Shown: positions 6,125 through 56,674, counted from the stretch's first letter. The stretch is 64,000 bases of DNA from Actinomycetota bacterium (GCA_035942255.1 DASZDG010000103.1:15540-79539); one strand, 5' to 3'. Numbers and translations are program-made. Notes: a model not told the origin generated them from the letters alone.

Positions 6125-6167
6125 CGTGGCTGCCACGAACGAAGAACACCCACTAGGAGGCCACCAG

Positions 6168-38224: not shown

Positions 38225-38457
38225 GTGAGACCTCCCGGAGCCCTCAAGCGCTGGAACACGGCCTCTTCGATCCGCTCGAGCTCCTCCGACGCGATCTCCC
38301 CGCGGCGGCACGCCTCTTCCGCCTCGTGGAGGCGCGCCCTCAGGGCGCGCGGGGCGTCGAGCTCGTTCGCTGCCATGTCCTCGAGCAACCGCGCCAGCCA
38401 GACCATGCCCTGCAGCGGCAGGAGCGGGAGCAGGAGGACGTTGGCGACCACGCCCAT
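38221..38457 (-). CDS. gvpG: gas vesicle protein G
   Basis: [32 protein letters not shown]... ATGA overlap with the gvpF stop. It is the 3' end of a longer spurious listed ORF. Confidence 0.7.
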   Translation of the reverse strand: MGVVANVLLLPLLPLQGMVWLARLLEDMAANELDAPRALRARLHEAEEACRRGEIASEELERIEEAVFQRLRAPGGLT

Positions 38458-39197
38458 CACGATGTCACCAGCGCGCCGGCGTCGACGAAGCTGTACGGAG
38501 GAAGGGAGCCCACCGCGCGCAGCGCCGCCCGGTCCGACAGCGCCTCTGCGGCGCGGGCGGCCGCGGTGTCGAACTCCGGCAGGTCCGTCCGCGCCACCAG
38601 GAAGGCCGCGTCGACCAGCCCGTACTCGCCCGCCGCATCTCCCACGGCGACGTCCTGCGCGTGCGGCGACAGCGCGTCCACGATCGCGCGCGCGTCGGAG
38701 TACCGCTGCCGGTCGAGCGCCTGCGCGAAGCGGTGGCCGAGGTCGATCATGCCGTCGACGTCGCCGCGGTCGCGCGCCCGCCGTTGCAGGCGCGCGATCG
38801 CGGGATCCGACGCGGCGACCGCGCGCGCCACGGCCTCTTCGTCGTACTCGCCCTTCACCTGGACCTCGACGAGCCCATGGGTTCGCCGGAGCATCCGGAC
38901 GAGCTCGTCGTGGTTCGGGCGGAGGAAGCCGGCGGACAGCTCTTCCACGGAGGTGAACAGGGTGCCGAACCCCACCGGCAGCACGTCGTGCGCGCCCACG
39001 ATCTCCTGCAACACGTCGGAGTGAGCCATGAGGTCTGCTCGTCCCGCGACGAAGTCCGCCGGGACGGCCGCCGTGACGGCCGCGACCTCCCCTTCGGCGA
39101 GGAGGGTCGTGTCCGCACCGGCCACGCCGCGGCAACGGACGGCCCGTGGCATGTCGGACGTCGAGACGATCCCGTAGAGGTAGAGGGCCGTCGTCAC
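38457..39197 (-). CDS. gvpF: GvpF/GvpL family gas vesicle protein
   Basis: ALYLYGIV...[10 protein letters not shown]... GTGA overlap with the gvpA stop. Only the last 246 codons of listed ORF 38457-40556 belong to it. Confidence 0.8.
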
Positions 39198-39586
39198 GAC
39201 CTGGCCTCCGCGTGCTCCCTGTCGCCGTCGCTGTTCTCGCTGCCCTTGCCTGGGAGCTTGTCGCGCAGGCCCTCGAGCGCGCCCTTCGTCGCGTGCTTCG
39301 CGCTCTTCTCGCCTGCGCCGGAGACGAGGTCGCCGAGCGTCTGCGAGTTGTTGACCTGGAGGAGGTCGAGCCGGTTCACGGCCTCCGCGAACCTGAGGTA
39401 GGTGTCGACGCTGGCTACGACCACCCGGGCGTCGATCGTGAGCAGCTCGATGCCGACGAGGGAGACGCGCACGAACGCGTCGATCACGAGGCCCTTGTCG
39501 AGTAGCACGTCGAGGACGTCGGCGAGCCCGCTCGGCCCCCCGCGACTCAGAGACTGTTGCGCGGCATACCGTTGCGCCATCGCCAT
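39194..39586 (-). CDS. gvpA: gas vesicle structural protein GvpA (copy 2) with charged C-terminal tail
   Basis: [50 protein letters not shown]. Confidence 0.9.
39323..39544 (-). repeat. 222-nt gvpA core, paralogous to 40118-40339
   Basis: Hand alignment gives 11 nucleotide differences in 222 nt, all synonymous. Confidence 0.85.
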
Positions 39587-39892
39587 CTACTTCACCCCCC
39601 GCGCCCCGCGCAGCGACGCCCACAGCGCGCTGACCCCGAGGAACCCGTACGCGGCGCGGCCGGGCACCGACTTCTTCTTCGCAACGGCCTGCACGAGGTC
39701 GAAGTTGAAGAGGCTCACCGAGATCCAGTTGGCGAAACCCAGCAGCAACGCGGCCGCGGTGAGGGAATCGACCTTGTTCGGCTTCTTCGACGTCGTGAGC
39801 TTCTTCGCGGTGCCGGCCGCGCCGCTCTTGACCGCGGCCCCCGCGTCGGCGACGCGGTCCGTCATTCCTTTCCTGCGTCCGAGCATCTGCAT
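39587..39892 (-). CDS. DUF378-like small membrane protein
   Basis: GGAGGA SD. GFANWISVSLFNFDLVQAV...AAYGFLGVSALWASL resembles the DUF378 two-helix pattern (NWGLVGLF.FDLV...YxLVGLSAL). Confidence 0.55.
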   Translation of the reverse strand: MQMLGRRKGMTDRVADAGAAVKSGAAGTAKKLTTSKKPNKVDSLTAAALLLGFANWISVSLFNFDLVQAVAKKKSVPGRAAYGFLGVSALWASLRGARGVK

Positions 39893-39901
39893 CCTCCTCG
39901 G

Positions 39902-40390
39902 CTAGAAGACCTGACCTCGTTCCTTGATGCGGGTGAGAAGCCCTTTGTCGTCGTCGACGCCGTCGTCGTTCTCGTGCGGGGGGTTCTCGGGGGCCGCGGG
40001 CTCGTCGCGCTGTTGCGCATGACCGTCGCCGGAGGGTTCCTCCTTCGCCGGCTCGGGCTCCGCGCGGGACGAGAGCGCGCTGGGGGCCGAGTCGCCGTTC
40101 TCTTTCTTCGGAGCGCCGACGAGGTCCCCGAGCGTCTGCGAGTTGTTCACCTGCAGGAGGTCTAGGCGGTTCACGGCCTCCGCGAACCTGAGGTAGGTGT
40201 CGACGCTTGCGACGACCACCCGGGCGTCGATCGTGAGCAGCTCGATGCCGACGAGGGAGACGCGCACGAAGGCGTCGATCACGAGGCCCTTGTCGAGGAG
40301 GACGTCGAGCACGTCGGCGAGCCCGCTCGGCCCCCCGCGGCCCATGCCCTGCTGAGCGAGGTGGACCTGCTGCCGTTGAGCGAGAGCCAT
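39902..40390 (-). CDS. gvpA: gas vesicle structural protein GvpA (copy 1) with long acidic C-terminal tail
   Basis: Same 74-aa core as copy 2. ATG 40390 is preceded by GGAAGGAGGG. The listed ORF start 40477 is rejected. Confidence 0.9.
40118..40339 (-). repeat. 222-nt gvpA core, paralogous to 39323-39544
   Basis: See the partner entry. Confidence 0.85.
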
Positions 40391-40573
40391 CGGTCCCTCC
40401 TTCCGGTCGCGGTCGGATCGTGGGCGTCTGTACCCGGTGCGTAGTCGGACAAACACGGTCAGCGACAGAAACTTCACGCCCCGTATCTGACCGGTTTCGG
40501 TCCGCAGTTAGTGGGTACGCCGCGTGGCAGATCGGATGCGTACGGTGTCCGGCCACCCGAAGGGAGGACCCAC

Positions 40574-41458: not shown

Positions 41459-42697
41459 TCACGATGCTCGGGTGCGCGGCACCGTCTCGACCCGGATGAG
41501 GGCAGCGGCGCGCTCGGCGACCGCCGCGGATTCTCGTCCGCTCTCGCCGGACGTGATCACGTGGCCGATGAGGTCACCGTCCGAGGTCGGGCGCGCGACC
41601 TCGGCTCCGGGCTCCACCCACAGCTGCAGGTCCTCAACGCCCGGCACAGCCGCAGCTTCCTCGGCGCCGACGATCGCCTCGACGACGCCGTCCTCTTCGA
41701 CCCAGAGGTCGCGCATCGTGCTCGCGCGGCGAGCGCGCGGCGGCGCAACCGTGGACTCGCCGAGATAGCGCCCCAAGACGTACGCGATCGAGTCCGAGCC
41801 CGACGCGTGATCGAGACAGAGGTGGGCCCGCCCGCCGATCAGCCGAGGGTTCAGCTCGACCAGTCGCGGTCCGTCGCCCGTCGTGATCAGCTCGAGGTGG
41901 AACGCGCCGAAGTCGTAGCCGGCCGCCTTTGTCACCAGCCGCACGAAGTCGTCCGCCGCGGCGCAGGGGCGGTCTGCCGAGAACGTCGACCGCACCTCCA
42001 CGAAGTACGGGTACCCCGCGAGCACGCGGTCGGAGTACCCCCAGATCTCGACCTCGTCACCGTCGACGAAACCTTCAGCGCTCGTCAACGGCCCCCGGAG
42101 CTCCTCCTCCAGGAGCAAGACGTGCTTCGGCTCCACCCGGCCCCCATAGAGCGCGCGCTCCCGGTGAGCGCGGACCGCTTCCTCCAGCTCTCGGTCGTCG
42201 GCCACGCGCACCACGTCCCAGCTTGCAAGGCCGTCGACCGGCTTGACGACGCACGGGAAGCCGATCGGCGACGTGGGTGCGCGCTCGTCCGCGGGGACGA
42301 CCGCCCACTTCGGATTGGGGATCCCCGCCCCGTCGAGAGCGCGCCGCACCGCGGACTTGTCGCGGGCGAGCGCCGGCGCGTCCGGCGTTGCTGCGCGCAG
42401 ACCGAGGAGCCGTCCAGCCTCGCTCGTGGCGCGGCCGGTGAAGAGGTCGCTGAACGTAAGCAGACCGCGGGCGTCGGTGCCGTCGGCCGCCGCCGCCATC
42501 GCCGCAGCGGAATGCGTGTCGCAACGCCTCCACTCGTCGACGAGCTCGTGTACCCGGGCGGGATAGTTCGCCGGGTTCGCAGACAGGACGACATTCCGGT
42601 AGCCGAGCTCGCGACTCAGACGGAGCCCCTCGGACCCCGGGCTCGGGACGTCGGGCCCCGCCGGGCTGAGGTGGACCTCTACGAAGAGGACGTCCAC
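41459..42697 (-). CDS. ATP-grasp domain ligase
   Basis: FPCVVKPVDGLASWDV, LLLEEELRG and FHLELITTGDGPRLVELNPRLIGG are typical ATP-grasp segments. Confidence 0.8.
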   Translation of the reverse strand: MDVLFVEVHLSPAGPDVPSPGSEGLRLSRELGYRNVVLSANPANYPARVHELVDEWRRCDTHSAAAMAAAADGTDARGLLTFSDLFTGRATSEAGRLLGLRAATPDAPALARDKSAVRRALDGAGIPNPKWAVVPADERAPTSPIGFPCVVKPVDGLASWDVVRVADDRELEEAVRAHRERALYGGRVEPKHVLLLEEELRGPLTSAEGFVDGDEVEIWGYSDRVLAGYPYFVEVRSTFSADRPCAAADDFVRLVTKAAGYDFGAFHLELITTGDGPRLVELNPRLIGGRAHLCLDHASGSDSIAYVLGRYLGESTVAPPRARRASTMRDLWVEEDGVVEAIVGAEEAAAVPGVEDLQLWVEPGAEVARPTSDGDLIGHVITSGESGRESAAVAERAAALIRVETVPRTRAS

Positions 42698-43873
42698 GCG
42701 GGCTCCGTGCGGGGCATGGCTCGTTGCGCGTCGTCGATTGCTGCCAGGAGGGGCGGGTACGTGTTGGCCTCGCGCAGAGCGTCGAATCTCGCCCTAGCGG
42801 CATCGTCGAGCCTCCGCCTGAAAAGTCCCTCGCCCTCTTCCAGAAACACCGCGGACCACAGCGGGAACAGGCGGCCGCCGCGGGTCACTTTCGCCTCGAA
42901 CGCCTCTGTGCCCAGATGGACTTGCTCGAGGTCGTTCTCGATCGCGTACTGCAGGGGCGCGTAGAGGACGAGTGGGAAGTACGCGCCACGGACCGAGGGG
43001 TCGTCGTAGTCGAAACCCGCCGACCTCAGGAAGAGGTGACGGCCCCACCGGTACGCGAGGCAGTAGCCGATCACCGCGTCGTCGTTGTTCAACACGAACG
43101 CGACGCTGTGCCGGTTCGCTTCCTCGGACGCGAGCCGGAGGCTCTTCTCGAGAGCGCCTTCGTCGGCCGCGCTCCCGTAACGCCTCTGGACGTTGGCGAG
43201 AAGACGCGCCATGACGTTCTCGAGACCCGCTTGTCGCGTCGGCTCGATGGATAGGCCCGAGCGTTCGAAGCGTCCGATCTCACGCTTAATAGCGTTGCGA
43301 CGATCGCGGGAGAACGATCCGAGATATTCGTCAAAGGTCCTCCACTGCACCGCGAGCCGGGCCTCGAAGGTCTCCAGGTAGACGACGTAACCCCTCGGCG
43401 TCAGGACGGGCGACGCTTCCGCGGCCGCGCCGTCGGTCAGGTACATGAGTCCACAGCCGCGAGCGCCCCAGCGGCGCGCCTGCCGCTCCATCTCCTCGAC
43501 GATTCGCGTGGCGACTTCCCCTCGCGCGGCCGGAAGGGCGTCCGGGAGTAGGAGCTGGGAGCGGAAGCCGAGCCTTCCACCCCCCAGCACGAAGGGATGC
43601 AGTGGCTCTTCGACCGGCCCGCCGAGGACGCCGGCCAGGGATTCGGATGGGTCGTAGGGGGACGGCGAGGGTGCGGCCGCGAGGTAGAGGGGGAGACCGC
43701 CGGCGAACTCGTCGTCGACGACGGCCTCCACGCAGGCTTCAGGCCCACTCCATCCGCGGCCCATCGCACGCAGCCACGCGTGTGACGAGTAGAAGCCGTC
43801 GGGCGGAACGAGGCCGTCCCATTGCCCTGCCGGGACGTCGAGGATCGAGGGCGCGACGCGCGTCTCGACGCGG

Positions 43874-43887
<14 letters not shown>
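42679..43887 (-). CDS. FemAB-like / DUF482-type GNAT-fold acyltransferase
   Basis: WDGLVPPDGFYSSHAWLRAM...LYLAAAP...FDEYLGSFSRDRRNAIKRE...YCLAYRWGRHLFLRSAGFDYD...YAIENDLEQVHLGT. The GTG at 43887 is chosen, and the His-Arg repeat N-terminus of the listed ORF is rejected. Confidence 0.6.
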
Positions 43888-45232
<1,345 letters not shown>

Positions 45233-45359: not shown

Positions 45360-46571
45360 GTGGGAGGGCCAGGGATCGTGAGATTGGCGGAGATCCGGTC
45401 GCTCGTCCGGGTCGTCGCGCCCCGTCCAGGAGGCGCGGCGCGCCTGACCCGGATCGTCTCGATCGAAGATCTCAGGCGCGCCGCGCGCCGGTCCGTCCCG
45501 CGCGCGGTCTTCGACTCGATCGACGGCGGTGCGGAGGGGGAAGTCACGCTCCGCAGGAACGTGGCCGCGTTCGAGCGTCTCGAGCTTCTCCCTCGAATCC
45601 TGCGGGACGTCAGCGACGTCGACACGCGGACGACGCTGCTGGGGACGCCCTCCGCGGTTCCGTTCGCGCTCGGGCCCGCGGGATACACACGGGTTGCGGA
45701 CCCGTCGGGGGGCGAGCTCGCCGTAGCCCGCGCCGCGGCGAAGGCGGAGATCCCGTACTGCCTGTCCACGGTGTCCTCGACTTCGATCGAGCAGACCGCG
45801 GCGGCCGGAGACCGGATGTGGTTCCAGCTCTACGTCCAGGAGGACCGTGGCGTCACGAGGGAGCTCGTCGCCCGCGCCCGGGAGGCGGGCTACCGCGCGC
45901 TCCTCGTGACCGTCGACGCACTCGTCACGGGGGGTCGCGAGCGCGACAGGCACAACGCGTTCACGATCCCGCCTACGGTCGGCCCGCGGTCTCTCGTCGA
46001 CGCGGCGTTCCATCCGCGGTGGTGGTGGCGGTTCGTGACGAGTCCACCGGTGACGTTCGCCAACCTGGGAGATGAGGCTGCGGTTCCCGGCGTGCTGCGC
46101 GGGGTCGGTGTGTCGCCGTGGATGGTCTGGTCGGACCTCGAATGGATCGTCGACGAGTGGGACGGCCCTATTGCGCTCAAGGGCGTGATGGCCGCAGCCG
46201 ACGCCGAGCGGGCGGCCGAAGCGGGGGTCTCCGTCATCGTCTCGAACCACGGTGGGCGGCAGCTCGACCACGTCCCGGCCACCATCGAGGTGCTTCCCGA
46301 GATAGTCGACGCCGTGGGCGGACGCGTCGACGTCTATCTCGACTCGGGAATCCGCCGCGGGACCGACGTCGTCAAGGCCCTCGCGCTCGGCGCGAAGGGC
46401 GTATTGGTCGTGAGGCCCTACCTCTACGGCCTCGCGGCGGAAGGCGAGAGCGGAGCGGCGCACGCGATCGCGTTGCTCGCGGCAGAGCTGCGACGTGCGA
46501 TGGCGCACCTCGGGGCCACGAGGCTCGACGATCTCTCGCCGGAGATGGTGCGGCCCCGGGCGACCCGGTGA
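45360..46571 (+). CDS. FMN-dependent alpha-hydroxy acid oxidase/dehydrogenase (LldD / hydroxymandelate oxidase family)
   Basis: FDSIDGGAEGEVTLRRN, WFQLY and VSNHGGRQLD motifs. Confidence 0.85.
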   Translation: MGGPGIVRLAEIRSLVRVVAPRPGGAARLTRIVSIEDLRRAARRSVPRAVFDSIDGGAEGEVTLRRNVAAFERLELLPRILRDVSDVDTRTTLLGTPSAVPFALGPAGYTRVADPSGGELAVARAAAKAEIPYCLSTVSSTSIEQTAAAGDRMWFQLYVQEDRGVTRELVARAREAGYRALLVTVDALVTGGRERDRHNAFTIPPTVGPRSLVDAAFHPRWWWRFVTSPPVTFANLGDEAAVPGVLRGVGVSPWMVWSDLEWIVDEWDGPIALKGVMAAADAERAAEAGVSVIVSNHGGRQLDHVPATIEVLPEIVDAVGGRVDVYLDSGIRRGTDVVKALALGAKGVLVVRPYLYGLAAEGESGAAHAIALLAAELRRAMAHLGATRLDDLSPEMVRPRATR

Positions 46572-46582
46572 GGGGACGCCGG

Positions 46583-46879
46583 CTACGCTGGCGGTGACCC
46601 CGTCATCGCGTCGATCGCGGCCGCCGCCTCGGCGACCGTCGGGTTCTCGAAGAAGAAGCTCAAGCCGAGGTCGGCGCCGAGAGCCTCGCGGATCTGCCCG
46701 GCGATCTGCGCGGCCTTCAGCGAGTCCCCGCCGGTCTCGAAGAAGTCGTCGTGGAGGCCGACCTCGGTCCCGAAGGCAGTCGACCAGGCCGCGGCTACCG
46801 CTCCTTGGGTCGACGACGCGGCGCCGTTCCCGCCGCCGCGTGATGCGTCGTCCACCTGAACCTCCGTTCGTCCGTCCAC
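46583..46879 (-). CDS. free-standing acyl/peptidyl carrier protein
   Basis: Phosphopantetheine attachment motif FFETGGDSLKAAQI. Confidence 0.75.
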   Translation of the reverse strand: MDGRTEVQVDDASRGGGNGAASSTQGAVAAAWSTAFGTEVGLHDDFFETGGDSLKAAQIAGQIREALGADLGLSFFFENPTVAEAAAAIDAMTGSPPA

Positions 46880-47033
46880 CCTTGGCCCCGTAGCGAAGTC
46901 TAGCCCTCAAGGCACACGGGATCCCGCGGAGCGCGCGCCGTCTACAAGGGCGCGAAAAAGTCTCGAACGCCCGGTCCGGCGGGCCGTTTTGGGCCATTCG
47001 GTGTCACGGACTTGCCCACGGACATCACTCCAG

Positions 47034-47063
47034 TTGACACCGCGAGTTCGGATGCCGGATACT
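47034..47063 (+). promoter_or_regulatory. sigma-70-type promoter (TTGACA-18 nt-GATACT)
   Basis: A perfect -35 hexamer at 47034-47039 and an A2/T6-containing -10 at 47058-47063, in a locally lower-GC spacer. Confidence 0.5.
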
Positions 47064-47096
47064 TGATTGGATAGGCGTCGAACAGGAGGTGGGGGC

Positions 47097-47174
47097 ATGT
47101 CCGCAGCTGTGTTGACCGAGTCCGCGGTCCGTCCGATGGAGAGCGCGATCCTCATGGAGTCCGCGGTCCTCTAA
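47097..47174 (+). CDS. 25-codon ORF MSAAVLTESAVRPMESAILMESAVL: candidate RiPP precursor peptide or regulatory uORF
   Basis: AGGAGG at 47084-47089 lies 7 nt before the ATG. 21 of 24 sense codons after the ATG end in G/C. The peptide has a triplicated ESA(V/I) motif. It is below the 60-aa cut-off of the ORF track. Confidence 0.45.
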   Translation: MSAAVLTESAVRPMESAILMESAVL

Positions 47175-47190
47175 TCGTCTCGGCGTAGAC

Positions 47191-47210
47191 CGTCTGCCTG
47201 ATGGCAGACG
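47191..47210 (+). promoter_or_regulatory. hairpin sequestering the methyltransferase start codon
   Basis: CGTCTGCC tgat GGCAGACG. ATG 47201-47203 spans the loop/stem junction. Confidence 0.5.
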
Positions 47211-48007
47211 CTGCAAGCTTCTTCGACCGCGCGGCTACCCGCTACGAGATCGACTTCGGCGACGCCTCCGTCTGGAGCATCGCCCACCGCGTCGCCGCGC
47301 GCATTCTCGACGACCACCTCCGGGAGTCGCCGCCTGACCGCGTCCTCGACGTGGGGTGCGGCACCGGCAAATGGGGGATGCCGTTCATCCGCCGCGGCGC
47401 GTCCGTGACGTTCACCGACGTCTCGCAGAGCATGCTGGCGACGGCGGTAGGGACGGCGACCGAGCTGGCGCGCGACGCGGACGTGAGGGGGTTCTGCGTG
47501 CCCGTCGAAGCGATGTCCGGCACCGTCGGGACCGGCGCGTTCGACCTCACGCTGTGCATGGGTGACCCCCTGTCGTACTGCGGCGACCACCGCGAGGGCA
47601 TCGCGGAGCTCGTCGCCGTGACGCGGCCCGGAGGGACGATCTTCCTGAGCGTCGACAGCCGTCTCGGCTACCTGAGGGTCTTCAAGGAGCGCGACGGGTA
47701 CGACCTTCGGCGACTCCGCGAGTACCTACGGACGGGCGAGCTGATCAGCTGGGAGGACCTCCCAATCCATACGTTCCTCCCCGGCGAGCTGCGGGACGGG
47801 TTCGCGGCCGCGGGGGCGGGATGCCGCGGGCTGTGGACGCTCCCCACGGTCTCCGCGTACTTCCTCTTCGACCCCGCGTTCAGGGAGATGCTCGAGGACG
47901 AGGCGTTTCGTGAGGAGCTGACCGACATCGAGATCGAGGCGCTCGGCATGGGCCAGGCGCCCCCCGGAAGCCATCACATCTACGCGCTCTTCGTCAGGGA
48001 CGAGTGA
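47201..48007 (+). CDS. class I SAM-dependent methyltransferase
   Basis: Motif I VLDVGCGTGKWG. Confidence 0.8.
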   Translation: MADAASFFDRAATRYEIDFGDASVWSIAHRVAARILDDHLRESPPDRVLDVGCGTGKWGMPFIRRGASVTFTDVSQSMLATAVGTATELARDADVRGFCVPVEAMSGTVGTGAFDLTLCMGDPLSYCGDHREGIAELVAVTRPGGTIFLSVDSRLGYLRVFKERDGYDLRRLREYLRTGELISWEDLPIHTFLPGELRDGFAAAGAGCRGLWTLPTVSAYFLFDPAFREMLEDEAFREELTDIEIEALGMGQAPPGSHHIYALFVRDE

Positions 48008-48804
48008 AGGGCCCCCTCGGCGGCGGCCCCGGTGAGCCGCCGCACGACACCGCGTCGTTCCTCGAAGGGCTGCGAAGCATCCGGCGGTTCGACGACCGGG
48101 ACGTCCCCGACGAGGTCGTGCGCCGCGCCATCGAGATAGGACAGCGCGCGCCGTCTGCCTCGAATCATCAGCCGTACTCGGTCATCGTCGTCAAGGACCG
48201 CGGGCTCCGCCACGAGCTCGAGACCACGCTGCGGGTCCAGCGCTTCGTCGAGGACGCGCCGGTCTTTCTGGTCGTTTGCGTGGACTGGTCGAGACAGGAC
48301 GCGGTCGCGCTCGAGGTCGGCGGGCCCACGCAGATGAACCAGCTCAGCCGGCTGGTGATCGGGATGACCGATTGCTCGATCTTCGCCCATCATCTAACGC
48401 TCGCCCTGATGGCGTTCGGGCTGGGCGTGTGCTTCGTCGCGAACCCCGTGCTCGCGCTCGACGAGACCGCGCGGATCCTGTCGTTGCCGAAGATCTCGTG
48501 CGTGCCGCTGCACGTGGTCGTCGCGGGATATCCCGCCGAGGACCCTCCGTTGCGCCCCCGCTATCCGACGGACCTCGTCGTCTTCGAGGACCGCGGATGG
48601 CACCCGCCCGACGTGGACGCCGTGCGCGACTACCTGCGGCGCGGCGACGAGCGCCTCCGGGAGGAGTCCTACTTCGAGGTGACGGGTGACGACGTGGGGA
48701 CCTGGTACGAACACTACGCCGTGAAATACGGGGACCGCGCGCTGAACCGGACTTGGGCGCCGCTCGCGAGCCAGATCCTGGGCTTCCTCGACCCTCATGC
48801 GTAA
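48004..48804 (+). CDS. nitroreductase-family FMN oxidoreductase (positioned as an azoline dehydrogenase)
   Basis: RSIRRFDDRDVPDEVVRRAIEIGQRAPSASNHQPY. Overlaps the methyltransferase stop and directly precedes the YcaO gene. Confidence 0.75.
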   Translation: MKGPLGGGPGEPPHDTASFLEGLRSIRRFDDRDVPDEVVRRAIEIGQRAPSASNHQPYSVIVVKDRGLRHELETTLRVQRFVEDAPVFLVVCVDWSRQDAVALEVGGPTQMNQLSRLVIGMTDCSIFAHHLTLALMAFGLGVCFVANPVLALDETARILSLPKISCVPLHVVVAGYPAEDPPLRPRYPTDLVVFEDRGWHPPDVDAVRDYLRRGDERLREESYFEVTGDDVGTWYEHYAVKYGDRALNRTWAPLASQILGFLDPHA

Positions 48805-50877
48805 GTGACGTCCGGGGCGGACGTTTACTGCCGCCTGGCGCGCGGCGGCGCGTGTGGTCCCGCCGCCGCCGGCTTCTTCGCCGAGGCAGGGGGCCGGTTC
48901 TTTCGATGGAAGGTCGATGCGCCGGCGGTCGACCGGCTCCTGTGGGCACTGATGCTGCGCCAGGGCGTCTACGTCCGGGATCTACTGCGGTGGGCCGGGA
49001 GATACCGCGGGGGCCTGCGGACGATCGTCGACCACGGGCTCGCCGAAGGCTGGCTCGAGGGCGAGCGCGATGCGCCGGCGGACCCTGCTCTCCATCCGGC
49101 GGGAGCCGCGCTTCTTCTCGGCTCGCCGTCGTTGATACCGCCGGGGGTCGCGGTCTCCTCCGCCGACGCCGGTCCCGCGGCTCGTATCGAAGCGTCTCTC
49201 TCCCTAGACGCGAGCGTGGTCGTCTACGAGGGCGCTCGCATGCGGTGGCGGGGTTTCGCCGCGCTGTGCGAGGTGCCCGCCGCCGTCCCGGTGGTCGCTC
49301 ACCTGGACCTCGGTCACGAGGTGCTCGTCGTGACGCTCCCGGCGGGCTGCGGCGCGTGTCTCGAGTGCGCGCTCCGATGGTACGAGGGGTCGTCGCCGAA
49401 CGCCCGTGAGGTGAGCGAATGGGTGAGGTCGGTGGTCGCGCAGCCGCTCACAGACGTCGCGGGTCCTCCGGCGGCGGCCGGGGTCGTGTGCCTGCGCGTG
49501 AGCGAGGTCCTGGAGGGCACGCGAACGCGCGCCTCGATCGACCTCGTTCGGGTTCCGGACGAAGCAAGCGAGGAGGTCCCCCTCGTGCGCCATCCGTCTT
49601 GTGGCGGCGGAACATCCGTGCACGGCGCCATGGCGGCGTCGCAGGGACCGGAAAGCTTGGCGGCTGCGATTGGCAGGGGCCGGATCATCCACGGCTTCGC
49701 GACCGAGGACATCGGGACGCCCGCGGGTGCTCCCGCGTACCACCTCGCACGGGCGGCGCCCAACTCCGCCACGAGGACGAGGACGGTCGACCCGGTCTTC
49801 TGCTTCGGCGACGACACCGACCCCGCGGTCGCGCGCATCCGCTGCATCGCGGAGTGCCTCGAGCGGTACTGCATCTTCCATTACGACGGGGCGCGCCTCG
49901 TGAGGAGCACTCGCGCTGACCTCCCCGCCGCGGTCGATCCGCGCTCTCTTCCGTTGTTCCCGGACGACCGTTACGACGACCGAGGGTTTGGTTTCGCCCC
50001 TTACGTGGAGCCGGCCGAGCTCGACTGGGTGGAGGGGACCAGGCTCCGCGACGGGTCGTCCGCATGGGTTCCTGCGGAGGCCGTCTTCCTCGGGTACGAA
50101 CCGCCCGGGCTACCGCTCCTGCCGGCATCCTCGACGGGCGTGGCGGTCGCGGCTTCGACGGAGGCTGCGGTGGAGGGCGCGTTGCTGGAGGTGCTCGAAC
50201 GAGACGCGCTCGCCCTCGCGTTCTTGTTGCGGATGCGGTTGCCCCGCGAGGACCTGAGCGCCGACGAGCACATCGCCCCTCTCGTCGAGCGGATGCAGTC
50301 GGAGGGGTTCGTCGTCACCGCGTTCTCGTTGCGCCTCGACGTGGACGTGCCGGCGTTCCTCGTGACGGCCGTACGGGTCGAGGGCGACGCGCCACGCCTC
50401 CTGCGGGGAGCGGCTGCGTCGCCCGACGCGAGCGACGCGTTGAGGCATGCCTTCAGGGAGACATGGAGGAGCTTTCTCTACTACCGCAGCTATCCGCGCA
50501 CGCTGCCGGTAGCGCTGGAGGACGTGTCGCCGAACAGCATCGAGTACAACATCGCGTATTACCAGGACGCGACTTGCGTGAGGGAGTTGGACTTCCTCGC
50601 CGGCGGCCGAGCCGGGCCTGGTGATGCGAGCACGCAGTCGGCGCGCTCGGTCGTCGAGCGCGTGGGGGAGCGTGGTTACGAGCCCATACACGTCGACTGC
50701 ACCTTGCCGGAGGTCGCTAGCCTGGGCTTTCGTTGTGCGCGCGTGATCGTCCCGGGGATGCAACCCCTCAGCTTCGGCAGACAGCCGTGGCGTCTGGCGG
50801 AGGAGCGGATCGCGGCGATTGCCGGGCGCGCCGTCCCGCGAGATTCGCTCAACACCGGCACGCACTTCTTCGCCTGA
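48805..50877 (+). CDS. YcaO-domain protein with ~280-aa N-terminal extension (fused cyclodehydratase-like)
   Basis: YcaO region: AECLERYCIF...ASSTGVAVAASTEAAVEGALLEVLERDA...VIVPGMQPL. The N-terminal part has a wHTH-like stretch and a Cys cluster (CGACLEC...HPSCGGG). Confidence 0.75.
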   Translation: MTSGADVYCRLARGGACGPAAAGFFAEAGGRFFRWKVDAPAVDRLLWALMLRQGVYVRDLLRWAGRYRGGLRTIVDHGLAEGWLEGERDAPADPALHPAGAALLLGSPSLIPPGVAVSSADAGPAARIEASLSLDASVVVYEGARMRWRGFAALCEVPAAVPVVAHLDLGHEVLVVTLPAGCGACLECALRWYEGSSPNAREVSEWVRSVVAQPLTDVAGPPAAAGVVCLRVSEVLEGTRTRASIDLVRVPDEASEEVPLVRHPSCGGGTSVHGAMAASQGPESLAAAIGRGRIIHGFATEDIGTPAGAPAYHLARAAPNSATRTRTVDPVFCFGDDTDPAVARIRCIAECLERYCIFHYDGARLVRSTRADLPAAVDPRSLPLFPDDRYDDRGFGFAPYVEPAELDWVEGTRLRDGSSAWVPAEAVFLGYEPPGLPLLPASSTGVAVAASTEAAVEGALLEVLERDALALAFLLRMRLPREDLSADEHIAPLVERMQSEGFVVTAFSLRLDVDVPAFLVTAVRVEGDAPRLLRGAAASPDASDALRHAFRETWRSFLYYRSYPRTLPVALEDVSPNSIEYNIAYYQDATCVRELDFLAGGRAGPGDASTQSARSVVERVGERGYEPIHVDCTLPEVASLGFRCARVIVPGMQPLSFGRQPWRLAEERIAAIAGRAVPRDSLNTGTHFFA

Positions 50878-50880
50878 TCC

Positions 50881-52008
50881 TCAGGCGCGGACCAGCCGGA
50901 GCTCCTCGACCGACCGGAACCCGACACGCCGCCGCCACCTAGGGGGGTGCGCGATCGTCCACGAGCGCATGAAGATCCGCGCCCGGGGGACGAGGACGTT
51001 CATCTCCGCACGCGCCAGCGCGGCGCCGAGACAGTAGTGGGGGCCGTAACCGAACGAGAGGTGGCGTGGGGTACGTCCACCGTCGGCGACTTCGAACGAG
51101 GAGCGGTCGAGGTTCGCCGCGGCCAGGACGAGGTAGACGTGCTCGTGGTCACGCACCTCGAGCGAGCCTAGGGAGATCGCTTCCCGCGCGACGCGGCCGA
51201 CCGACTGCGCGGGCGAAACCAGCCGCAGCAGCTCGTCGATTCCTCTGGGCTCGCGTCGGGTGGAGGCGTCGCGGAGGACCGTGCCGACGAGGAAGTTCGC
51301 CGAGTTCTCGAACCCGGCGTGGAGTAGCACGGACGGTGTCACCGTTGCCTCCCTCTGGGTTACGGCACCGGACGCGCGTGCGTCTTCGAGGTGGCCGACC
51401 AGGGCGCTCGACGAGGCGAGGCTCCCGAAGCGGTCGTCGAAGTACCGCAACAGCTCGAACGACGCCCTCGACCCCGCGACGCGCTCGGACGGCTCCTCGA
51501 ACGGCTCGATCGTCGCGGTAACGCGGCGGAGCTGCGGGAGGAGCTCGTCGACCTCTTTCGCCGCGAGCCCGAGCAGACCCCCGATGATCCGCGCGGTAGC
51601 GGGCTGCGCGACGTCGGTCAGGAAGTCGATCGAGTCCCGACCTCCGACGCCCTCGATGACTTCGTCCCACGTCTGCGCGACGAAGTCGTCGAGCGACACG
51701 CGGTTCGCGCCGTGAGAGATCGCGTCGTAGACGACCTTCCGGAGGCGCGCATGCTCCGGCCCGTCCATGAACAGGAGGTTCCCCGACTCACCACTCGCCG
51801 CCGAGACCGGCCGCCGATCGGCCGCGAGCCGAGGGTCGGTGAGAAGCCCCCGGCACAGGCCGTAGTCGGCGACCCAAACCCGTCCGGCGCGGCGATCCCA
51901 TCCACCCGCGTCCGCCAAAGCCCGGTAGAAGGGGGCGGGGTCCTCGAAGAACGAATCGGGAAGCGGGTCCGGCTGCGCCTGTGGGGCAGGGGCCGCGGCG
52001 TCACTCAT
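50881..52008 (-). CDS. cytochrome P450
   Basis: Heme loop FGYGPHYCLGAALAR. I-helix-like HAGFENS. Confidence 0.85.
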   Translation of the reverse strand: MSDAAAPAPQAQPDPLPDSFFEDPAPFYRALADAGGWDRRAGRVWVADYGLCRGLLTDPRLAADRRPVSAASGESGNLLFMDGPEHARLRKVVYDAISHGANRVSLDDFVAQTWDEVIEGVGGRDSIDFLTDVAQPATARIIGGLLGLAAKEVDELLPQLRRVTATIEPFEEPSERVAGSRASFELLRYFDDRFGSLASSSALVGHLEDARASGAVTQREATVTPSVLLHAGFENSANFLVGTVLRDASTRREPRGIDELLRLVSPAQSVGRVAREAISLGSLEVRDHEHVYLVLAAANLDRSSFEVADGGRTPRHLSFGYGPHYCLGAALARAEMNVLVPRARIFMRSWTIAHPPRWRRRVGFRSVEELRLVRA

Positions 52009-52963
52009 CTACGTGCTCGAGCCACGACGCGTACTCGTCGATCTCCCCCTTGATCGCCGAGTAGAACGTCTCCTGGATCTTCTTCGTGATGACGCCGGGG
52101 CCTCCGAGCTCGTGGTCGTCGATCGAACGGATCGGGACGACCTCGGCTGCAGTCCCGGTGAGAAACGCTTCGTCAGCGACGTAGACGTCGGCTCGGTTGA
52201 GCTTCGCTTCGCGGGTGACCCATCCCAGGTCTGCTGCGATCCGTACGACCGAGTCCTGGGTGATCCCCCGGAGCGCGCCCAGTGACGCCGGGGGTGTAAC
52301 CAGCTCGTCGTTCAGCACGGCGAAGAAGTTGAGCGTCGTCCCCTCCGCGACGTATCCGCCCGGGCTGAGGAGGATCGCGTCGTCGTACCCCGCCCGGACG
52401 GCCTCCACCTTGGCGAGTGACGAGTTTATGTAGCGCCCCGTCGCCTTCGCCTGCGGGGGGATCGCGTTCGAGTCGATCAGCCGGAAGCTCGAGATCTTCG
52501 CGCGGATGCCGTTGCGGATCGCGTCGTCGCCCAGAGACGTCCTCAGGGGGAACGCGATTATGGCGACCCTGCTCTCCGAGACGAGGGGGTTCAACCCGAT
52601 CTCTCCGTCGCGCAAGAAAACGATCGGCCGGATGTAGCACGACGCCAGGTCGTTCACGCGGACGAGGTCCTTCGTCGCGGCGACGAGCTCTTCGACCGAG
52701 TACGGGACGTCCAGCGTGAGCATCCGCGCCGAGCGGTGCAGCCGCCGCATGTGGTCGGTGAGCCGGAACGCCGCGGGGCCCCGGGCGCTCTCGTAAGTCC
52801 GGATGCCCTCGTACACGCCCCACCCGTAGTGAAGCGAGGGCGTCAGGACGTGGATGTTCGCGTCGGCCCAGTCGACGAGCGCGCCGTCCATCCAGATCTT
52901 CTCGGTCTTCGCAACGGGCACGTCCGCCTCCGGAGTCCGCGGCGGCCGACCGGCCACCCCCAC
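52001..52963 (-). CDS. class IV (branched-chain / D-amino acid type) aminotransferase
   Basis: WMDGALVDWADANIHVLTPSLHYGWGVYEGIRTY...GITQDSV... An alternative GTG start is at 52921. Confidence 0.8.
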   Translation of the reverse strand: MGVAGRPPRTPEADVPVAKTEKIWMDGALVDWADANIHVLTPSLHYGWGVYEGIRTYESARGPAAFRLTDHMRRLHRSARMLTLDVPYSVEELVAATKDLVRVNDLASCYIRPIVFLRDGEIGLNPLVSESRVAIIAFPLRTSLGDDAIRNGIRAKISSFRLIDSNAIPPQAKATGRYINSSLAKVEAVRAGYDDAILLSPGGYVAEGTTLNFFAVLNDELVTPPASLGALRGITQDSVVRIAADLGWVTREAKLNRADVYVADEAFLTGTAAEVVPIRSIDDHELGGPGVITKKIQETFYSAIKGEIDEYASWLEHVDE

Positions 52964-53016: not shown

Positions 53017-54165
53017 GTGGACGCGAAGGAAGCGGCGCGACAGCGGTTGGAGCGGGAGCGTGAGCGGCTGATCGACCTTAGCCACCGGATCCACGCGACG
53101 CCCGAGCTTGCGTTCGAGGAGGAGCGTTCCTCGGCCTGGACGGCAGAGGCGCTGTCGGGTGCAGGGTTCGCGGTGACTCCGAACGTCGCAGGTCTGCCGA
53201 CGGCTTTCACCGCACGCGCGGGCGAAGGTCCGCTGCGCGTCGCGATTTGCGCCGAGTACGACTGCCTGCCCGGGATCGGTCACGCGTGCGGCCACAACAT
53301 CATCGCCGCGAGCGCGGTCGGAGCCGCGATCGCGGCAGCGGCCGTGGCCGACGACCTCGGCCTCACCGTCACGGTCGTGGGGACACCGGCCGAGGAGAGC
53401 GGCGGCGGCAAGATCATCCTGCTCGAGGACGGCGTGTTCGCCGGCCAGCACGCGGCGATGATGGTCCACCCGGCGCCTTACGACGCGGTCCGCAGGCCCC
53501 TCCTCGCGATGACCCAGTTCGGCGTCACGTATCGCGGGAAGGCATCTCATGCCTCGGCCTACCCGGAGCTGGGCGTGAATGCCGCCGACGCGCTGACGGT
53601 CGCGCAGACCGCGATCGGGCTCCTGCGCCAACACCTCCGGCCCGCCGACCGCGTGCACGGGATCGTCACGCATGCGGGCGACGCGCCGAACGTCGTCCCG
53701 GCGCTCGCGACCGCGACCTATCAGGTCCGAGCCACGACGGTCGACGACCTCGACGACGTCTATCGCAAGGTGAGGAGGTGCTTCGACGCCGGCGCTCTCG
53801 CGACGGGCGCGGAGCTCTCGGTCGAGGAGGCGTGGAAGCCGTACGCCGAGATGCGGCACGACGCGGAGCTCGCGACGCTCTACCGCGCGAACGCGGAGCG
53901 ATTGGGGCGCACGTTCTCCGACACGGTCGAGGCGAAACCCCCAGCGGCGTCGACCGACATGGGGAACGTCTCGCAGATGCTCCCGTCGATCCATCCCTTC
54001 GTCGGGATCGATTCGTCCCCGGCGGTGAACCACGAGCCCGCGTTCGCGGCGCATTGCGTAACGCCGGCTGCGGACAAGGCCCTGGCGGACGGAGCGCTCG
54101 GGCTCGCGTGGACGGCGATAGACATCGCCTCGGACGAATCGCTGGCGGCGCGGCTGATGGGTTAG
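53017..54165 (+). CDS. M20 family amidohydrolase
   Basis: IHATPELAFEE, EYDCLPGIGHACGHN and GTPAEESGGGK. Confidence 0.85.
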   Translation: MDAKEAARQRLERERERLIDLSHRIHATPELAFEEERSSAWTAEALSGAGFAVTPNVAGLPTAFTARAGEGPLRVAICAEYDCLPGIGHACGHNIIAASAVGAAIAAAAVADDLGLTVTVVGTPAEESGGGKIILLEDGVFAGQHAAMMVHPAPYDAVRRPLLAMTQFGVTYRGKASHASAYPELGVNAADALTVAQTAIGLLRQHLRPADRVHGIVTHAGDAPNVVPALATATYQVRATTVDDLDDVYRKVRRCFDAGALATGAELSVEEAWKPYAEMRHDAELATLYRANAERLGRTFSDTVEAKPPAASTDMGNVSQMLPSIHPFVGIDSSPAVNHEPAFAAHCVTPAADKALADGALGLAWTAIDIASDESLAARLMG

Positions 54166-55052
54166 TCGCTCGGCGAGGGCTGCGCCACCTTCGTCGCGAG
54201 GAGATCGTCGAGCGCCCCCGCAAGTCCTGGACTGACCTGTGTCAGCGGGAGGCGGCACTGCGGGGACCGGATGAGCCCCATCCGCCACAGGCAGTGCTTG
54301 AGGGGCATCGGATTCGGTTCTGCGAACAGCATCGAGACGATCGGGGCGAGGAGCTTCCACTCACGGCGCGCGCTCTCCACATCGTTCTCCCGTATGCGTC
54401 TCTCGACGCCGACGAACGTCTCCGTGGCGACGTGTGCGGCCGCGAGGATGCCTCCGGCCGCGCCGTTCGCGAGCACGGTGAAGAACTGGTTGTCCTCGCC
54501 GGTGAGCACGGCGAGCCGGTCCCCGGCGCGCGCTAGGAGGTCGGCCGTCTGAGCCAGCGAGCCGGACGAGTCCTTCACGGCGACGACGTTTCGACATGAG
54601 TCCGCGAGCGCGAGGAGCGTGTCGTTCTCGATGTTGATCCCCGTCCGGTACGGGATGTTGTAGACGATGATCGAGCGCGACGTGCTGCTGGCGACGCGCT
54701 CGAAGTGCGCCAGGATCCCGTCCTGCGGCGGACGGTTGTAGTAGGGGCATACGACGAGGTAGCCGGCGACGTCGAACCGCTCGAGGTGGTGGATCGTCTC
54801 GACGACCGACCGCGTCACGTTCCCGCTGACGCCGACGTACACCGGCGCGCGCCCCGCGACGGTCTGCACCGTCGCGTCGACGATCCGGTCGCGCTCGTCG
54901 GGAGTTATGGCGGGACTCTCACCGGTCGTGCCGAGTGGGATGACACCCGCGACGCCGGCGCGGACGTAATGCTCGATCAGTCCGACATAGGAGTCGAGAT
55001 CGACTTCGTCGTCCACGAACGGCGTGATGGCCGGCAGGTACACACCGTTCAA
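54162..55052 (-). CDS. DapA/HTPA-synthase family class I aldolase (second copy in window)
   Basis: GTTGESPAIT, YNIPYRTG and AVKDSSG. The TTG at 55052 is preceded by GGAGGAG. The rest of listed ORF 54162-56189 is antisense to the ligase gene. Confidence 0.8.
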   Translation of the reverse strand: MNGVYLPAITPFVDDEVDLDSYVGLIEHYVRAGVAGVIPLGTTGESPAITPDERDRIVDATVQTVAGRAPVYVGVSGNVTRSVVETIHHLERFDVAGYLVVCPYYNRPPQDGILAHFERVASSTSRSIIVYNIPYRTGINIENDTLLALADSCRNVVAVKDSSGSLAQTADLLARAGDRLAVLTGEDNQFFTVLANGAAGGILAAAHVATETFVGVERRIRENDVESARREWKLLAPIVSMLFAEPNPMPLKHCLWRMGLIRSPQCRLPLTQVSPGLAGALDDLLATKVAQPSPSD

Positions 55053-55132
55053 GCGGATCTCCTCCCCGCGGTCGCGTTCACATCCCTGCGCTATCGTAGT
55101 CGCCGAGTCGTCGGGGAGGGGACGAACGTGCC

Positions 55133-56674
55133 GTGCCGCCGCATCCGGCCCTGCCTCCGAGTCGAGTTGCCGGAGGTGCCGACGTGGATACCGGGTTCGC
55201 TCGCTCCCGAGATGCTGCCGGATCGGCCCTCGCACGCGCGCACCAGGTCTACCTCGAGCGTCCCGACGACCCGGCTCTCGTCGTCGACGGTCGCGACGTC
55301 CTGACGTATCGGGAGCTTCACGAACGTTCGCAAGGCATCGCGGACGACCTGCGCGGTCGCGGCCTCGAGCCCGGCGACCGGGTCCTGTTGTCGTTTGCGG
55401 CGACCGAGTGGGCATCATTCCTGCCCGTGTGGCTGGGCGTGGTGAGGGCGGGGCTGGTCGCCGTCTCCGTCTCCACGCGCTTTGCCGAGCGCGAGCTGGC
55501 CAGGGTCGTCCAAGACGCCCGGCCCGCGCTCGGGATCGTCTCGCCGTCGGGCCCGCGGCCCGTGAGCACGTCGGTCCCGCTCGTCGCCACGTCCGACGTC
55601 TACGCCGCGCCCGCGCGCACCGCCGACGCCCTCGTCGTCGAGGAGTCCGCTCTGGCCGCGATCCTGTACACCTCCGGGACGACCGGGACGACCAAAGGGG
55701 TCGCATGCCCGCACGGTTCGCTCGTCGCGGCGAGCTTCCCCGAACCGAGGCGGTCGATCCATGCGTTCCCGTTCGACGCCGCGGCGGGACAGAACGTCTT
55801 CGTGCGCGCTCTCCTCGGGTCGCCCACGCACGCGCTGTCGACCTTCGCGCCTGGCCGGTTCGTCGACCTGGTTGCCGGCCACGACATCGAGTGGGCGGGC
55901 ATCGTCCCCACCATGGGAACGATGCTCGTGCGCTCGGGTGTCCTGCACCACCGCGCCCTGCCGTCGCTCCGCGTCCTCTGTCTGGCCGGCGCGCCAAGCC
56001 CACCGGTCCTCCTCGACCGGCTGCAGCGCGAGCTCCCGGACGCCCAGATCGTGAACCACTACACGCTGACAGAGGCAGGGCCGATGTTCCTCGCGCAGGT
56101 CTACGAGCCGTCGCGTCCCACCGCGGTGGGCCCGACGAGCGGCGACGTCGAGGTGCGCGTGCTCGACGAGGGGGGCCGGGAGGCCTCACGCGGCGACGTG
56201 GGGGAGATCGCGCTGCGCGCCCGGTGGCCGACAGTTGCGCGCTGCTACTTCGGTGACGAAGAGGCGACCGCGCGCACGTTCTCTCCAGACGGGTGGCTTC
56301 GCACGGGCGACCTGGGGTTCGTGGACGAGGACGGGTTCCTGCATCTCGTCGACCGCAAGAAGGATCTCATCATCCGCGCGGGCCGGAACATCTCTTGTCT
56401 GGAGGTGGAGGCGGTCATCGCCGAGCATCCGGACGTGGCGGACGTCGCGGTCTTCGGCTTGCCGCACGACGCGGTGGGCGAGATCGTCGCGACGGCGGTA
56501 GTGCTGGAGAGACCGGTGACGGAGCGGGCTCTCCGCGACCATGTCCGCCGCCATCTGACAGAGGAGAAGGTCCCGGAGGTCGTCGTAGTGCGCGACTCGC
56601 TGCCGCGGACCGAGACGGGCAAGGTCCTGAAACGCGTGCTCGCGGCCGAAACGGCGGGACGTCTCCGGGGTTAG
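55133..56674 (+). CDS. AMP-dependent synthetase/ligase (stand-alone adenylating enzyme)
   Basis: LYTSGTTGTTKGV, GDLGFVDEDGFLHLVDRKKDLI and a terminal GKVLKR. The start may lie a few codons downstream. Confidence 0.85.
   Translation: MPPHPALPPSRVAGGADVDTGFARSRDAAGSALARAHQVYLERPDDPALVVDGRDVLTYRELHERSQGIADDLRGRGLEPGDRVLLSFAATEWASFLPVWLGVVRAGLVAVSVSTRFAERELARVVQDARPALGIVSPSGPRPVSTSVPLVATSDVYAAPARTADALVVEESALAAILYTSGTTGTTKGVACPHGSLVAASFPEPRRSIHAFPFDAAAGQNVFVRALLGSPTHALSTFAPGRFVDLVAGHDIEWAGIVPTMGTMLVRSGVLHHRALPSLRVLCLAGAPSPPVLLDRLQRELPDAQIVNHYTLTEAGPMFLAQVYEPSRPTAVGPTSGDVEVRVLDEGGREASRGDVGEIALRARWPTVARCYFGDEEATARTFSPDGWLRTGDLGFVDEDGFLHLVDRKKDLIIRAGRNISCLEVEAVIAEHPDVADVAVFGLPHDAVGEIVATAVVLERPVTERALRDHVRRHLTEEKVPEVVVVRDSLPRTETGKVLKRVLAAETAGRLRG

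Follow-up and report, generated by a model that had tools for sequence, protein, structure and literature searches.

The window examined here, a stretch of 64,000 nucleotides (nt) from an Actinomycetota bacterium (GCA_035942255.1 DASZDG010000103.1:15540-79539), encodes a YcaO protein in one operon with a methyltransferase and a nitroreductase-family protein, which raises the question of what this enzyme set acts on. The candidate substrate is the product of a 25-codon open reading frame (ORF) at 47097-47174 (+), directly upstream of the three genes. Comparison with related loci led us to conclude, with good confidence, that this ORF is a real gene and that its product is the substrate of the adjacent YcaO system. 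An undescribed natural-product pathway most likely uses the encoded repeat peptide as its ribosomal substrate, because the same type of peptide adjoins related YcaO, nitroreductase and methyltransferase genes in five other bacteria. The first-pass annotation had read the ORF as the precursor of a peptide made on the ribosome and then modified after translation (RiPP) for the downstream operon, and the conserved repeat ORFs at related loci support that reading.

The small ORF lies in a spacer of 321 base pairs (bp), given as about 320 bp in the first-pass annotation, between the start of a divergent carrier-protein gene (46879, minus strand) and the methyltransferase ATG (47201). The promoter, ribosome-binding site, start codon and 25-codon frame described there are all present, as are the three downstream genes. 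The predicted sigma-70-like promoter (+) consists of TTGACA (47034-47039) and, after 18 nt, GATACT (47058-47063), and agrees with the consensus at 10 of 12 positions. No second promoter-like site was found in 46500-47600, where shuffled sequences lead one to expect 0.1. The Shine-Dalgarno sequence AGGAGG (47084-47089, +) stands 7 nt 5' of the ATG, and the proposed precursor gene closes with TAA at 47172-47174. An in-frame TTG at 47067 would give a 35-residue product. That codon has no ribosome-binding site and falls 4 nt after the -10 hexamer, inside the predicted promoter and transcription-start region, so the ATG at 47097 is the likely start.

The product, MSAAVLTESAVRPMESAILMESAVL, can be parsed as MSAAVL-TESAV-RP-MESAI-L-MESAV-L. 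Its three units occupy 47115-47129 (TESAV; ACC GAG TCC GCG GTC), 47136-47150 (MESAI; ATG GAG AGC GCG ATC) and 47154-47168 (MESAV; ATG GAG TCC GCG GTC), all on the plus strand; the second unit uses AGC for Ser instead of TCC. Two further properties claimed for the ORF were borne out by the sequence: 21 of 24 codons carry G or C at the third position, and the window contains exactly two copies of the DNA word GAGTCCGCGGTCC, at 47118 and 47157 (against 0.06 expected; none of 100 shuffles reached two copies). A six-frame scan of the window for two [ED]S[AG][VILM] motifs lying within 8 residues of each other, uninterrupted by a stop, found the small ORF alone. The ORF had been called unlisted, and the exact 25-mer was indeed missing from about 15 billion predicted proteins; it was therefore not called as a gene in those sources.

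The evidence that carries the precursor reading comes from the relatives of the YcaO protein. An exhaustive HMMER search with the window YcaO returned six more full-length relatives (P0004-P0009, 31-43% identity) and, just below them, two YcaO-only proteins of about 410 amino acids (aa; P0010 and P0011). The family is rare, with ten representatives and one 125-aa fragment in 1.8 billion cluster representatives. The contigs encoding the relatives were fetched and searched for small repeat ORFs. An ORF of xESA(V/I/L) repeats was found in the operon at all six distinct family loci with intact flanks, namely the window, L001, L124, L125, L249 (identical to L250) and L252. The five outside the window have 41-57 codons and consist almost wholly of 6-8 copies of x-E-S-A-(V/I/L). 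The 42-aa L001 peptide reads MVV-MESAI-MESAV-WESAI-MESAI-MESAV-WESAI-MESAI-MESA, and the L124 peptide MELIDGVVP-LESAV-QL-LEAAQ-P-LESAV-QV-LESAV-QP-LESAV-QL-FESAV-QP-FESAV-HA. Those of L125, L249 and L252 are MMTHT-TESAL-FESAL-P-VESAL-FESAV-AP-FESAL-FESAV-LMGALSLDL, MMYSAYI-VESAI-TESAI-TESAI-AELCI-VESAI-VESAI-TESA and MPFDAYL-FESAI-TESAI-SESAI-TESAI-TESAI-TESAI-SESAI-TESA, respectively.

Across these loci the number of units ranged from 3 in the window to 8, the repeat period was 5, 6 or 7 residues, and the spacers measured 1 to 3 residues. Cys is not a conserved residue. Each unit of 5-7 residues contains one invariant Ser, the only invariant nucleophile of the cassette. Only 3-9 residues precede the first unit in any of the six peptides, and by their sequences the peptides of this family are leaderless. 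The first-pass annotation had judged the 25-mer unusually short for a leader plus core. It is short, and the reason is that the family has no leader, the whole peptide being made of repeats.

Four other family contigs (L123, L126, L127 and L128) showed no repeat ORF, but their sequence starts within the methyltransferase or nitroreductase gene or a short way upstream of it, and they are therefore uninformative on this point. On the contig of P0008 (JGI 3300048101), the gene listing includes a 49-aa gene upstream of a methyltransferase-nitroreductase-YcaO-M20 module; the module is followed there by an acyltransferase and a trans-acyltransferase (trans-AT) polyketide synthase (PKS) of more than 5,000 aa. 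The position of the repeat ORF varied. At L001 it is downstream of the YcaO gene and is followed by a luciferase-like monooxygenase gene, and at L249 and L252 the gene after it is DapA-like and not a methyltransferase. An outer-membrane efflux protein and an RND adaptor, also encoded at L249, suggest that its host is Gram-negative. The family appears to span Actinomycetota to Gram-negative bacteria, and the five other repeat-ORF bacteria are distantly related. The next YcaO in the similarity ranking (P0012, on L253) has a different precursor of 92 aa that is rich in Cys, so the repeat peptide tracks the clade of the window's YcaO. This L253 precursor (6554-6832) ends in ...NSINCCACCCCGQADPTENNPN, a typical Cys-rich core of the azole type, and the nitroreductase of L253 gave no BLAST match to the nitroreductases of the ESA-repeat family.

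Codons and frames were compared over 22 units from four loci. Glu, Ser and Ala were invariant in all 22, while their codons varied: GAG 17 times and GAA 5 times for Glu; TCC 5, TCG 9, TCT 3, TCA 1 and AGC 4 times for Ser; and all four codons for Ala. The repeat-peptide frame was the single frame open in all four loci, and the other five were interrupted by stop codons in L124 and L125 and held nothing conserved. The exchange of TCC in units 1 and 3 of the window for AGC in unit 2 keeps Ser in the repeat-peptide frame only. These comparisons indicate that the repeat ORF is protein-coding and that selection acts on its peptide. Conservation of the ESA(V/I) ORF beside homologous YcaO operons with synonymous sites free to vary was a test named beforehand for this ORF, and that pattern was found. 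No frame-disrupting changes were seen in the family loci, nor was a better precursor candidate found in any of them. Two minus-strand ORFs that overlap the region (46907-47155 and 47025-47216) were rejected; their frames are interrupted by stops in L124 and L125, and no motif of theirs is conserved.

The expression signals were also shared. A Shine-Dalgarno-like purine-rich motif lies 4-12 nt 5' of the ATG in all six ORFs. Directly 3' of the stop codon, stems of 19 bp (L125, z = -6.3), 18 bp (L124, z = -4.3), 16 bp (L001, z = -4.45) and 16 bp (L252, z = -4.2) were found; the lengths at this position in the four loci are also stated as 15-19 bp. The hairpin after the L249 ORF was not significant. 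RiPP precursor genes are usually laid out in this way, with a small-peptide gene and then a hairpin.

The proposed modifying enzyme is a 690-aa YcaO protein (48805-50877, +; Pfam PF02624, 202 bits) with a fused N-terminal half of the peptide-clamp/E1-like type. An identical protein is encoded in a metagenome-assembled genome of the Actinomycetota; close relatives are very few. Its best NCBIfam match was TIGR03604 (the azole-forming SagD family, 205.5 bits), accompanied by a weak match to TIGR03882. In an alignment of eight family sequences the ExxER and ExxERD motifs were invariant and the CxxC...HPSC set of the N-terminal half was kept; we take these to serve in ATP/Mg and Zn binding, respectively. 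An AlphaFold2 model built from this alignment reached a predicted local distance difference test (pLDDT) value of 81.9 and a predicted template modelling score (pTM) of 0.86. In Foldseek comparisons the model matched LynD, TruD and MusD over its full length (E = 1e-28 to 1e-23, template modelling score 0.55-0.62), and its N-terminal half also matched MccB and ThiF. The sequence identity in these structural alignments was only about 14-15%, and phmmer placed the protein distant from TruD by sequence (E = 5.5e-11). On account of the full-length and N-terminal matches, the modelled protein has the peptide-clamp/E1-like/YcaO architecture of the cyanobactin heterocyclases. The TIGR03604 match, the structural model and the invariant ExxER/ExxERD motifs together assign it to the azoline-forming type.

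The two other genes of the operon accompany the YcaO gene closely, and the three coding regions abut or overlap. The first encodes a class I S-adenosylmethionine-dependent methyltransferase (47201-48007, +; Methyltransf_25) that is 43-58% identical to its counterparts in L124, L125, L126, L249 and L252; no diagnostic match was obtained for it that would point to a substrate. The second encodes an NfsA/NfrA1-like flavin oxidoreductase of the nitroreductase family (48004-48804, +), identified by profile and structure matches and 45-71% identical across the family. Across the family, both proteins show stronger conservation than the YcaO. The best model for the flavoprotein was NfsA (NF008033, 109 bits), and the structures matched were NfrA1, NfsA and FRP. 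The first-pass annotation had called it an oxidoreductase dependent on flavin mononucleotide (FMN). A flavoprotein of the nitroreductase family it is, but of the NfsA kind and not an azoline dehydrogenase of the SagB/McbC type, and we rejected its assignment as a classical SagB-type dehydrogenase.

The features of the peptide and its neighbours suggest a route to the product. The strong promoter and ribosome-binding site would supply the peptide in excess over the enzymes, an effect that the hairpin 3' of the stop codon would reinforce in the relatives. YcaO and ATP would then phosphorylate the backbone amide between Glu and Ser, and the Ser hydroxyl would close an oxazoline in each cassette. 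Such cyclodehydration is the most probable first step, since Ser is the sole invariant nucleophile and the YcaO is of the azoline-forming type; for conversion of the cassette Ser residues to oxazol(in)es as such we see about an even chance. The co-conserved flavoprotein may oxidize the oxazoline to an oxazole, and the methyltransferase would add a methyl group. Both steps are plausible, although family membership lends them no support. Peptidases, for which the recurrent M20 amidohydrolase is a candidate, would cut after Ala and trim the variable spacers, and each precursor would yield several copies of one short ESA-derived product. This product may pass to an adenylating enzyme and carrier protein, an ATP-grasp ligase or a DapA-like aldolase.

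Excision as ESA-sized units is a tentative part of this scheme, and its main competitor is that the same precursor is kept whole apart from minor trimming, giving a linear peptide with one oxazol(in)e per cassette. The YcaO is of a type found with linear azol(in)e-containing peptides (LAPs) and cyanobactins, no dedicated endoprotease was identified in the window cluster, and a unit spacing of 5, 6 or 7 among loci could be tolerated in a polymer. Yet conservation is restricted to E, S, A and the next aliphatic residue, with length and copy number left free. With spacers of 1-3 residues and three peptides (L001, L249 and L252) that terminate exactly in ...ESA, this pattern suggests cutting after Ala and trimming to an ESA product. 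M20 amidohydrolases also recur at the family loci, and the thiovarsolin precedent yields tripeptides (PMC6511847). Release of a short ESA-derived product, by analogy with the thiovarsolins, is probably what follows modification, and within the precursor reading we give the intact linear peptide a lower but appreciable probability.

Several observations weigh against the precursor reading or parts of it. The window peptide has only three units, and the hairpin after the window ORF is weak, at 7 bp. The relatives are metagenomic contigs only, several of them short, and ESA-type simple repeats arise by chance in very large databases, where the matches listed include none with family enzymes. The TIGR03604 score of the YcaO falls just under the cutoff of 219, and the flavoprotein matched no SagB-type model or McbC chain. 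The window M20 amidohydrolase, 2 kb from the YcaO gene, is only 25-28% identical to those of the other loci and is not a close orthologue. Finally, the YcaO sequences of L249 and L252 lack the N-terminal peptide-binding half, which leaves these proteins no evident means of recognizing the peptide. These two proteins (2925-4163 and 2112-3341, 409-412 aa) lack the whole half that comprises the RiPP recognition element (RRE) and the E1-like domain, and the ESA-repeat peptide beside them is of the same type.

Next in order is a regulatory upstream ORF, whose translation would control the methyltransferase, nitroreductase and YcaO genes through the following hairpin, the peptide itself having no role. 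The stop codon lies 26 nt before the methyltransferase ATG, and hairpins follow the ORF in relatives. That ATG has no obvious Shine-Dalgarno sequence and is contained within the loop and 3' arm of a weak 7-bp hairpin (GUCUGCC-UGAU-GGCAGAC, 47192-47209, +), in a stretch that is not significant as a whole (z = -1.1). Translation of the methyltransferase may depend on ribosomes just finishing the small ORF. What is conserved, however, is the amino acid sequence and not the DNA, with synonymous change free and Ser switching between TCN and AGC codons. Loci differ in copy number (3 to 8), no single regulatory codon is repeated in a run, and an Rfam scan of 46500-47500 matched no RNA family. At L001 the ORF follows the YcaO gene, and at L249 and L252 it precedes the DapA-like gene. 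The first-pass annotation had kept regulation as its alternative; we now regard it as very unlikely.

Slightly less probable still is an unmodified accessory protein, such as an immunity, scaffold or helper peptide built of amphipathic repeats. Conservation and co-location with the enzymes would fit such a protein, and the L124 peptide gave weak matches below threshold to helical proteins. A repeat period of 5, 6 or 7 among loci is unlike a conserved helical fold, though, the peptides of 25-57 aa lack a hydrophobic stretch of the length that a membrane protein would need, and in position and expression signals the ORF matches a precursor gene. That the ORF is due to chance within a simple DNA repeat, as suggested by the many ESA-like low-complexity repeats that pattern scans of public genomes and metagenomes return, is effectively refuted, because among the matches listed no family YcaO, nitroreductase or methyltransferase lies near those repeats, and all six informative loci carry the ORF with start, stop and Shine-Dalgarno-like motif on diverged DNA that keeps the peptide motif.

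Searches outside the family loci bore on novelty and on the use of the motif. Pfam and NCBIfam precursor models gave no family at threshold for the six peptides, with E values allowed up to 10; sub-threshold XseB and coiled-coil matches of the L124 peptide were dismissed as spurious. Word-indexed protein search with the 42-aa L001 peptide returned nothing; short peptides are mostly missing from the collection, which includes only the repeat peptide of L125. Used as the query in the same kind of search, singly or in profile form, the YcaO found only itself, P0002 and one distant match, and it took the exhaustive HMMER search to uncover the family. A scan of genome contig DNA for two adjacent ESA(V/I) units gave low-complexity repeats, with none near family enzymes among the matches listed. 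In metagenomes, the family-specific YcaO motif gave 38 pattern matches, none of which was confirmed, and the three-unit ESA pattern gave 120 simple repeats, none with family enzymes; tblastn of the YcaO against a plasmid collection gave no match. Tandem ESA(V/I/L)-like repeats are common as low-complexity stretches in large proteins or as non-coding repeats (L003-L122, L129-L248), so the motif is unusable as a search key without the enzyme context. In the literature, where most subscription journals lay outside coverage, no relevant occurrence of the repeat strings or of the gene combination was found. We thus found no curated model or paper describing what appears from these genes to be a family of YcaO-dependent RiPPs with a leaderless tandem-cassette precursor and unusual partner enzymes. 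One unrelated RiPP system was seen on L002, beside a distant Conexibacter YcaO (P0003), where an 87-aa precursor of the NHase-alpha type (NHLP-like; 4235-4498) accompanies an ABC transporter with a C39 peptidase.

The wider neighbourhood contains enzymes that are unusual for RiPP clusters. Adenylating enzymes occur in two forms. The first, an acyl-CoA-ligase-like enzyme accompanied by a free carrier protein, is found in the window, L001 and L123 (in L126 there is just the ligase), and L124 and L249 combine a PaaK-like ligase with a thioester-reductase-like short-chain dehydrogenase/reductase. In the window, profile matches identified the free-standing carrier protein (PP-binding; 46583-46879, -), which is divergent from the small ORF and 44-48% identical to those of L001 and L123, and the acyl-CoA-ligase-like enzyme (55133-56674, +), which shares 53-54% identity with the AMP-binding genes in L001 and L123 and 47% with the one in L126. 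A DapA-like class I aldolase is encoded at 54162-55100 (-), its start not fixed but near 55070 (TIGR00674, 253.8 bits against a cutoff of 206). Aldolases above the dapA cutoff recur in L124, L249, L252 and at the end of L123. The window has a second DapA-family gene at 6126-7070 (+), about 48 kb from the cluster copy; the two are 34% identical to each other and about equally distant from the DapA-like genes of L124, L249 and L252. The cluster copy could be a biosynthetic or a resistance copy.

The M20 amidohydrolase (53017-54165, +) was identified by a profile match of the TIGR01891 type; an M20 gene comes after the YcaO gene in L123, L124, L125 and on the P0008 contig, and L001, L126 and L249 have one too. 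An ATP-grasp enzyme resembling L-amino-acid ligases (41459-42697, -; LAL_C2, ATP-grasp_4) has counterparts of the L-amino-acid-ligase or DdaF-like kind in L001 and L252. Convergent with the carrier-protein gene lies a gene for an FMN-dependent alpha-hydroxy-acid dehydrogenase/oxidase (45360-46571, +). Its product matched lactate dehydrogenase models and, below cutoff, the pre-mycofactocin synthase MftD (276 bits), an enzyme that acts on a RiPP-derived small molecule. Other cluster-like genes are confined to the window locus (41459-44031, 50881-52963 and 56680-57435, all -). The window-only genes encode a FemAB-like/GNAT protein, a major facilitator superfamily (MFS) transporter, a P450, a class IV aminotransferase of the branched-chain type and an alpha/beta-hydrolase with weak similarity to the thioesterase region of Pks13. 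Just left of the cluster, a 699-aa ORF (38457-40556, -) whose C-terminal 245 residues match the gas-vesicle protein GvpL/GvpF probably marks the boundary.

One possibility is that the excised unit serves as a building block for the DapA-like aldolase or the adenylating enzymes. In its full form, this proposal has the leaderless string of ESA cassettes converted to oxazol(in)e-containing, methylated, tripeptide-like units that would be excised and fed to non-ribosomal machinery, namely the adenylating enzyme with a carrier protein or thioester reductase, the DapA-like aldolase and the ATP-grasp enzyme of the L-amino-acid-ligase type. We regard the complete scheme as doubtful. If true, it would amount to a hand-over from a RiPP to a thiotemplate system that makes a small molecule; in one relative a trans-AT PKS is adjacent. 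Recognition would then lie in the cassette and not in a leader, because some YcaO proteins of the family have no RRE/E1-like domain.

If the precursor reading is true, the family represents a new type of YcaO precursor, without a leader and made only of very short cassettes with invariant Glu-Ser-Ala. How a leaderless substrate is recognized by a YcaO, whether or not the enzyme has the RRE/E1-like half, is a question that this reading poses. The reading also points to a product, probably small, of which each translation event would give several copies. This product would be linked to a DapA-like aldolase, acyl-AMP ligases, a carrier protein and an M20 amidohydrolase. The case also illustrates how a length cut-off in ORF calling hides a key gene. 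Three or more copies of x-E-S-A-[VIL] beside a YcaO gene would be a simple rule for finding more members.

Among known systems, the thiovarsolins of Streptomyces varsoviensis offer a close parallel. There, the repeating precursor VarA is converted by the YcaO VarY and the TfuA protein VarT to N-acetylated, thioamidated Ala-Pro-Arg (APR) tripeptides, and the cluster includes an ATP-grasp ligase and an MFS transporter next to non-ribosomal peptide synthetase and PKS genes (PMC6511847). Both systems have imperfect tandem repeats whose number varies between species, with YcaO as the key enzyme (PMC6511847), and both clusters contain an ATP-grasp ligase and an MFS transporter. The conserved tripeptide of each repeat becomes the thiovarsolin product; ESA is the invariant tripeptide here, and its excision is what we propose. 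The differences concern the chemistry and the leader. Thiovarsolin formation is a thioamidation that needs TfuA, on an APR core instead of ESA, and no TfuA match was found in the window cluster ORFs or in the called genes of L001, L123-L126, L249 and L252. VarA has a predicted leader, whereas the peptides here have only their 3-9 residues before the first unit, and the thiovarsolin clusters do not have the conserved pair of methyltransferase and NfsA-like flavoprotein.

The cyanobactin heterocyclases PatD, TruD and LynD, together with MusD, share the three-domain fold of the window YcaO as modelled. The MusD YcaO of muscoride biosynthesis also removes C-terminal residues in an ATP-dependent manner (PMC10885120). 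Cyanobactin precursors of the PatE type can hold several core cassettes with cyclizable Ser and Thr. In contrast, the present peptides have no leader and no RSI-RSIII recognition sequences, their cassettes measure 5-7 residues with a fixed ESA, and the L249 and L252 YcaO proteins do without the N-terminal half. No S8 (subtilisin) peptidase of the PatA/PatG type was found among the contiguous ORFs of 41.4-57.4 kb.

The LAPs, or thiazole/oxazole-modified microcins, such as microcin B17, streptolysin S and plantazolicin, resemble the present system in their YcaO cyclodehydratase, their flavoprotein of the nitroreductase superfamily and the small precursor gene at the head of the operon. Clusters of the plantazolicin type also have a methyltransferase. 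The family described here departs from them in its NfsA-like flavoprotein and in its leaderless peptide, which has no Cys and one Ser per unit and so no core rich in Cys, Ser and Thr. A DapA-like aldolase, adenylating enzymes, a carrier protein and an M20 amidohydrolase are associated with it as well. Small molecules are also made from RiPP precursors in other ways: pantocin A derives from Glu-Glu-Asn, mycofactocin from a C-terminal Val-Tyr, and pyrroloquinoline quinone from Glu and Tyr. Their precursors carry a single copy of the motif and are processed by other enzyme families (the E1-like PaaA and radical SAM enzymes). The likeness to the system proposed here is that the ribosomal peptide would be a mere carrier of a motif of 2-3 residues.

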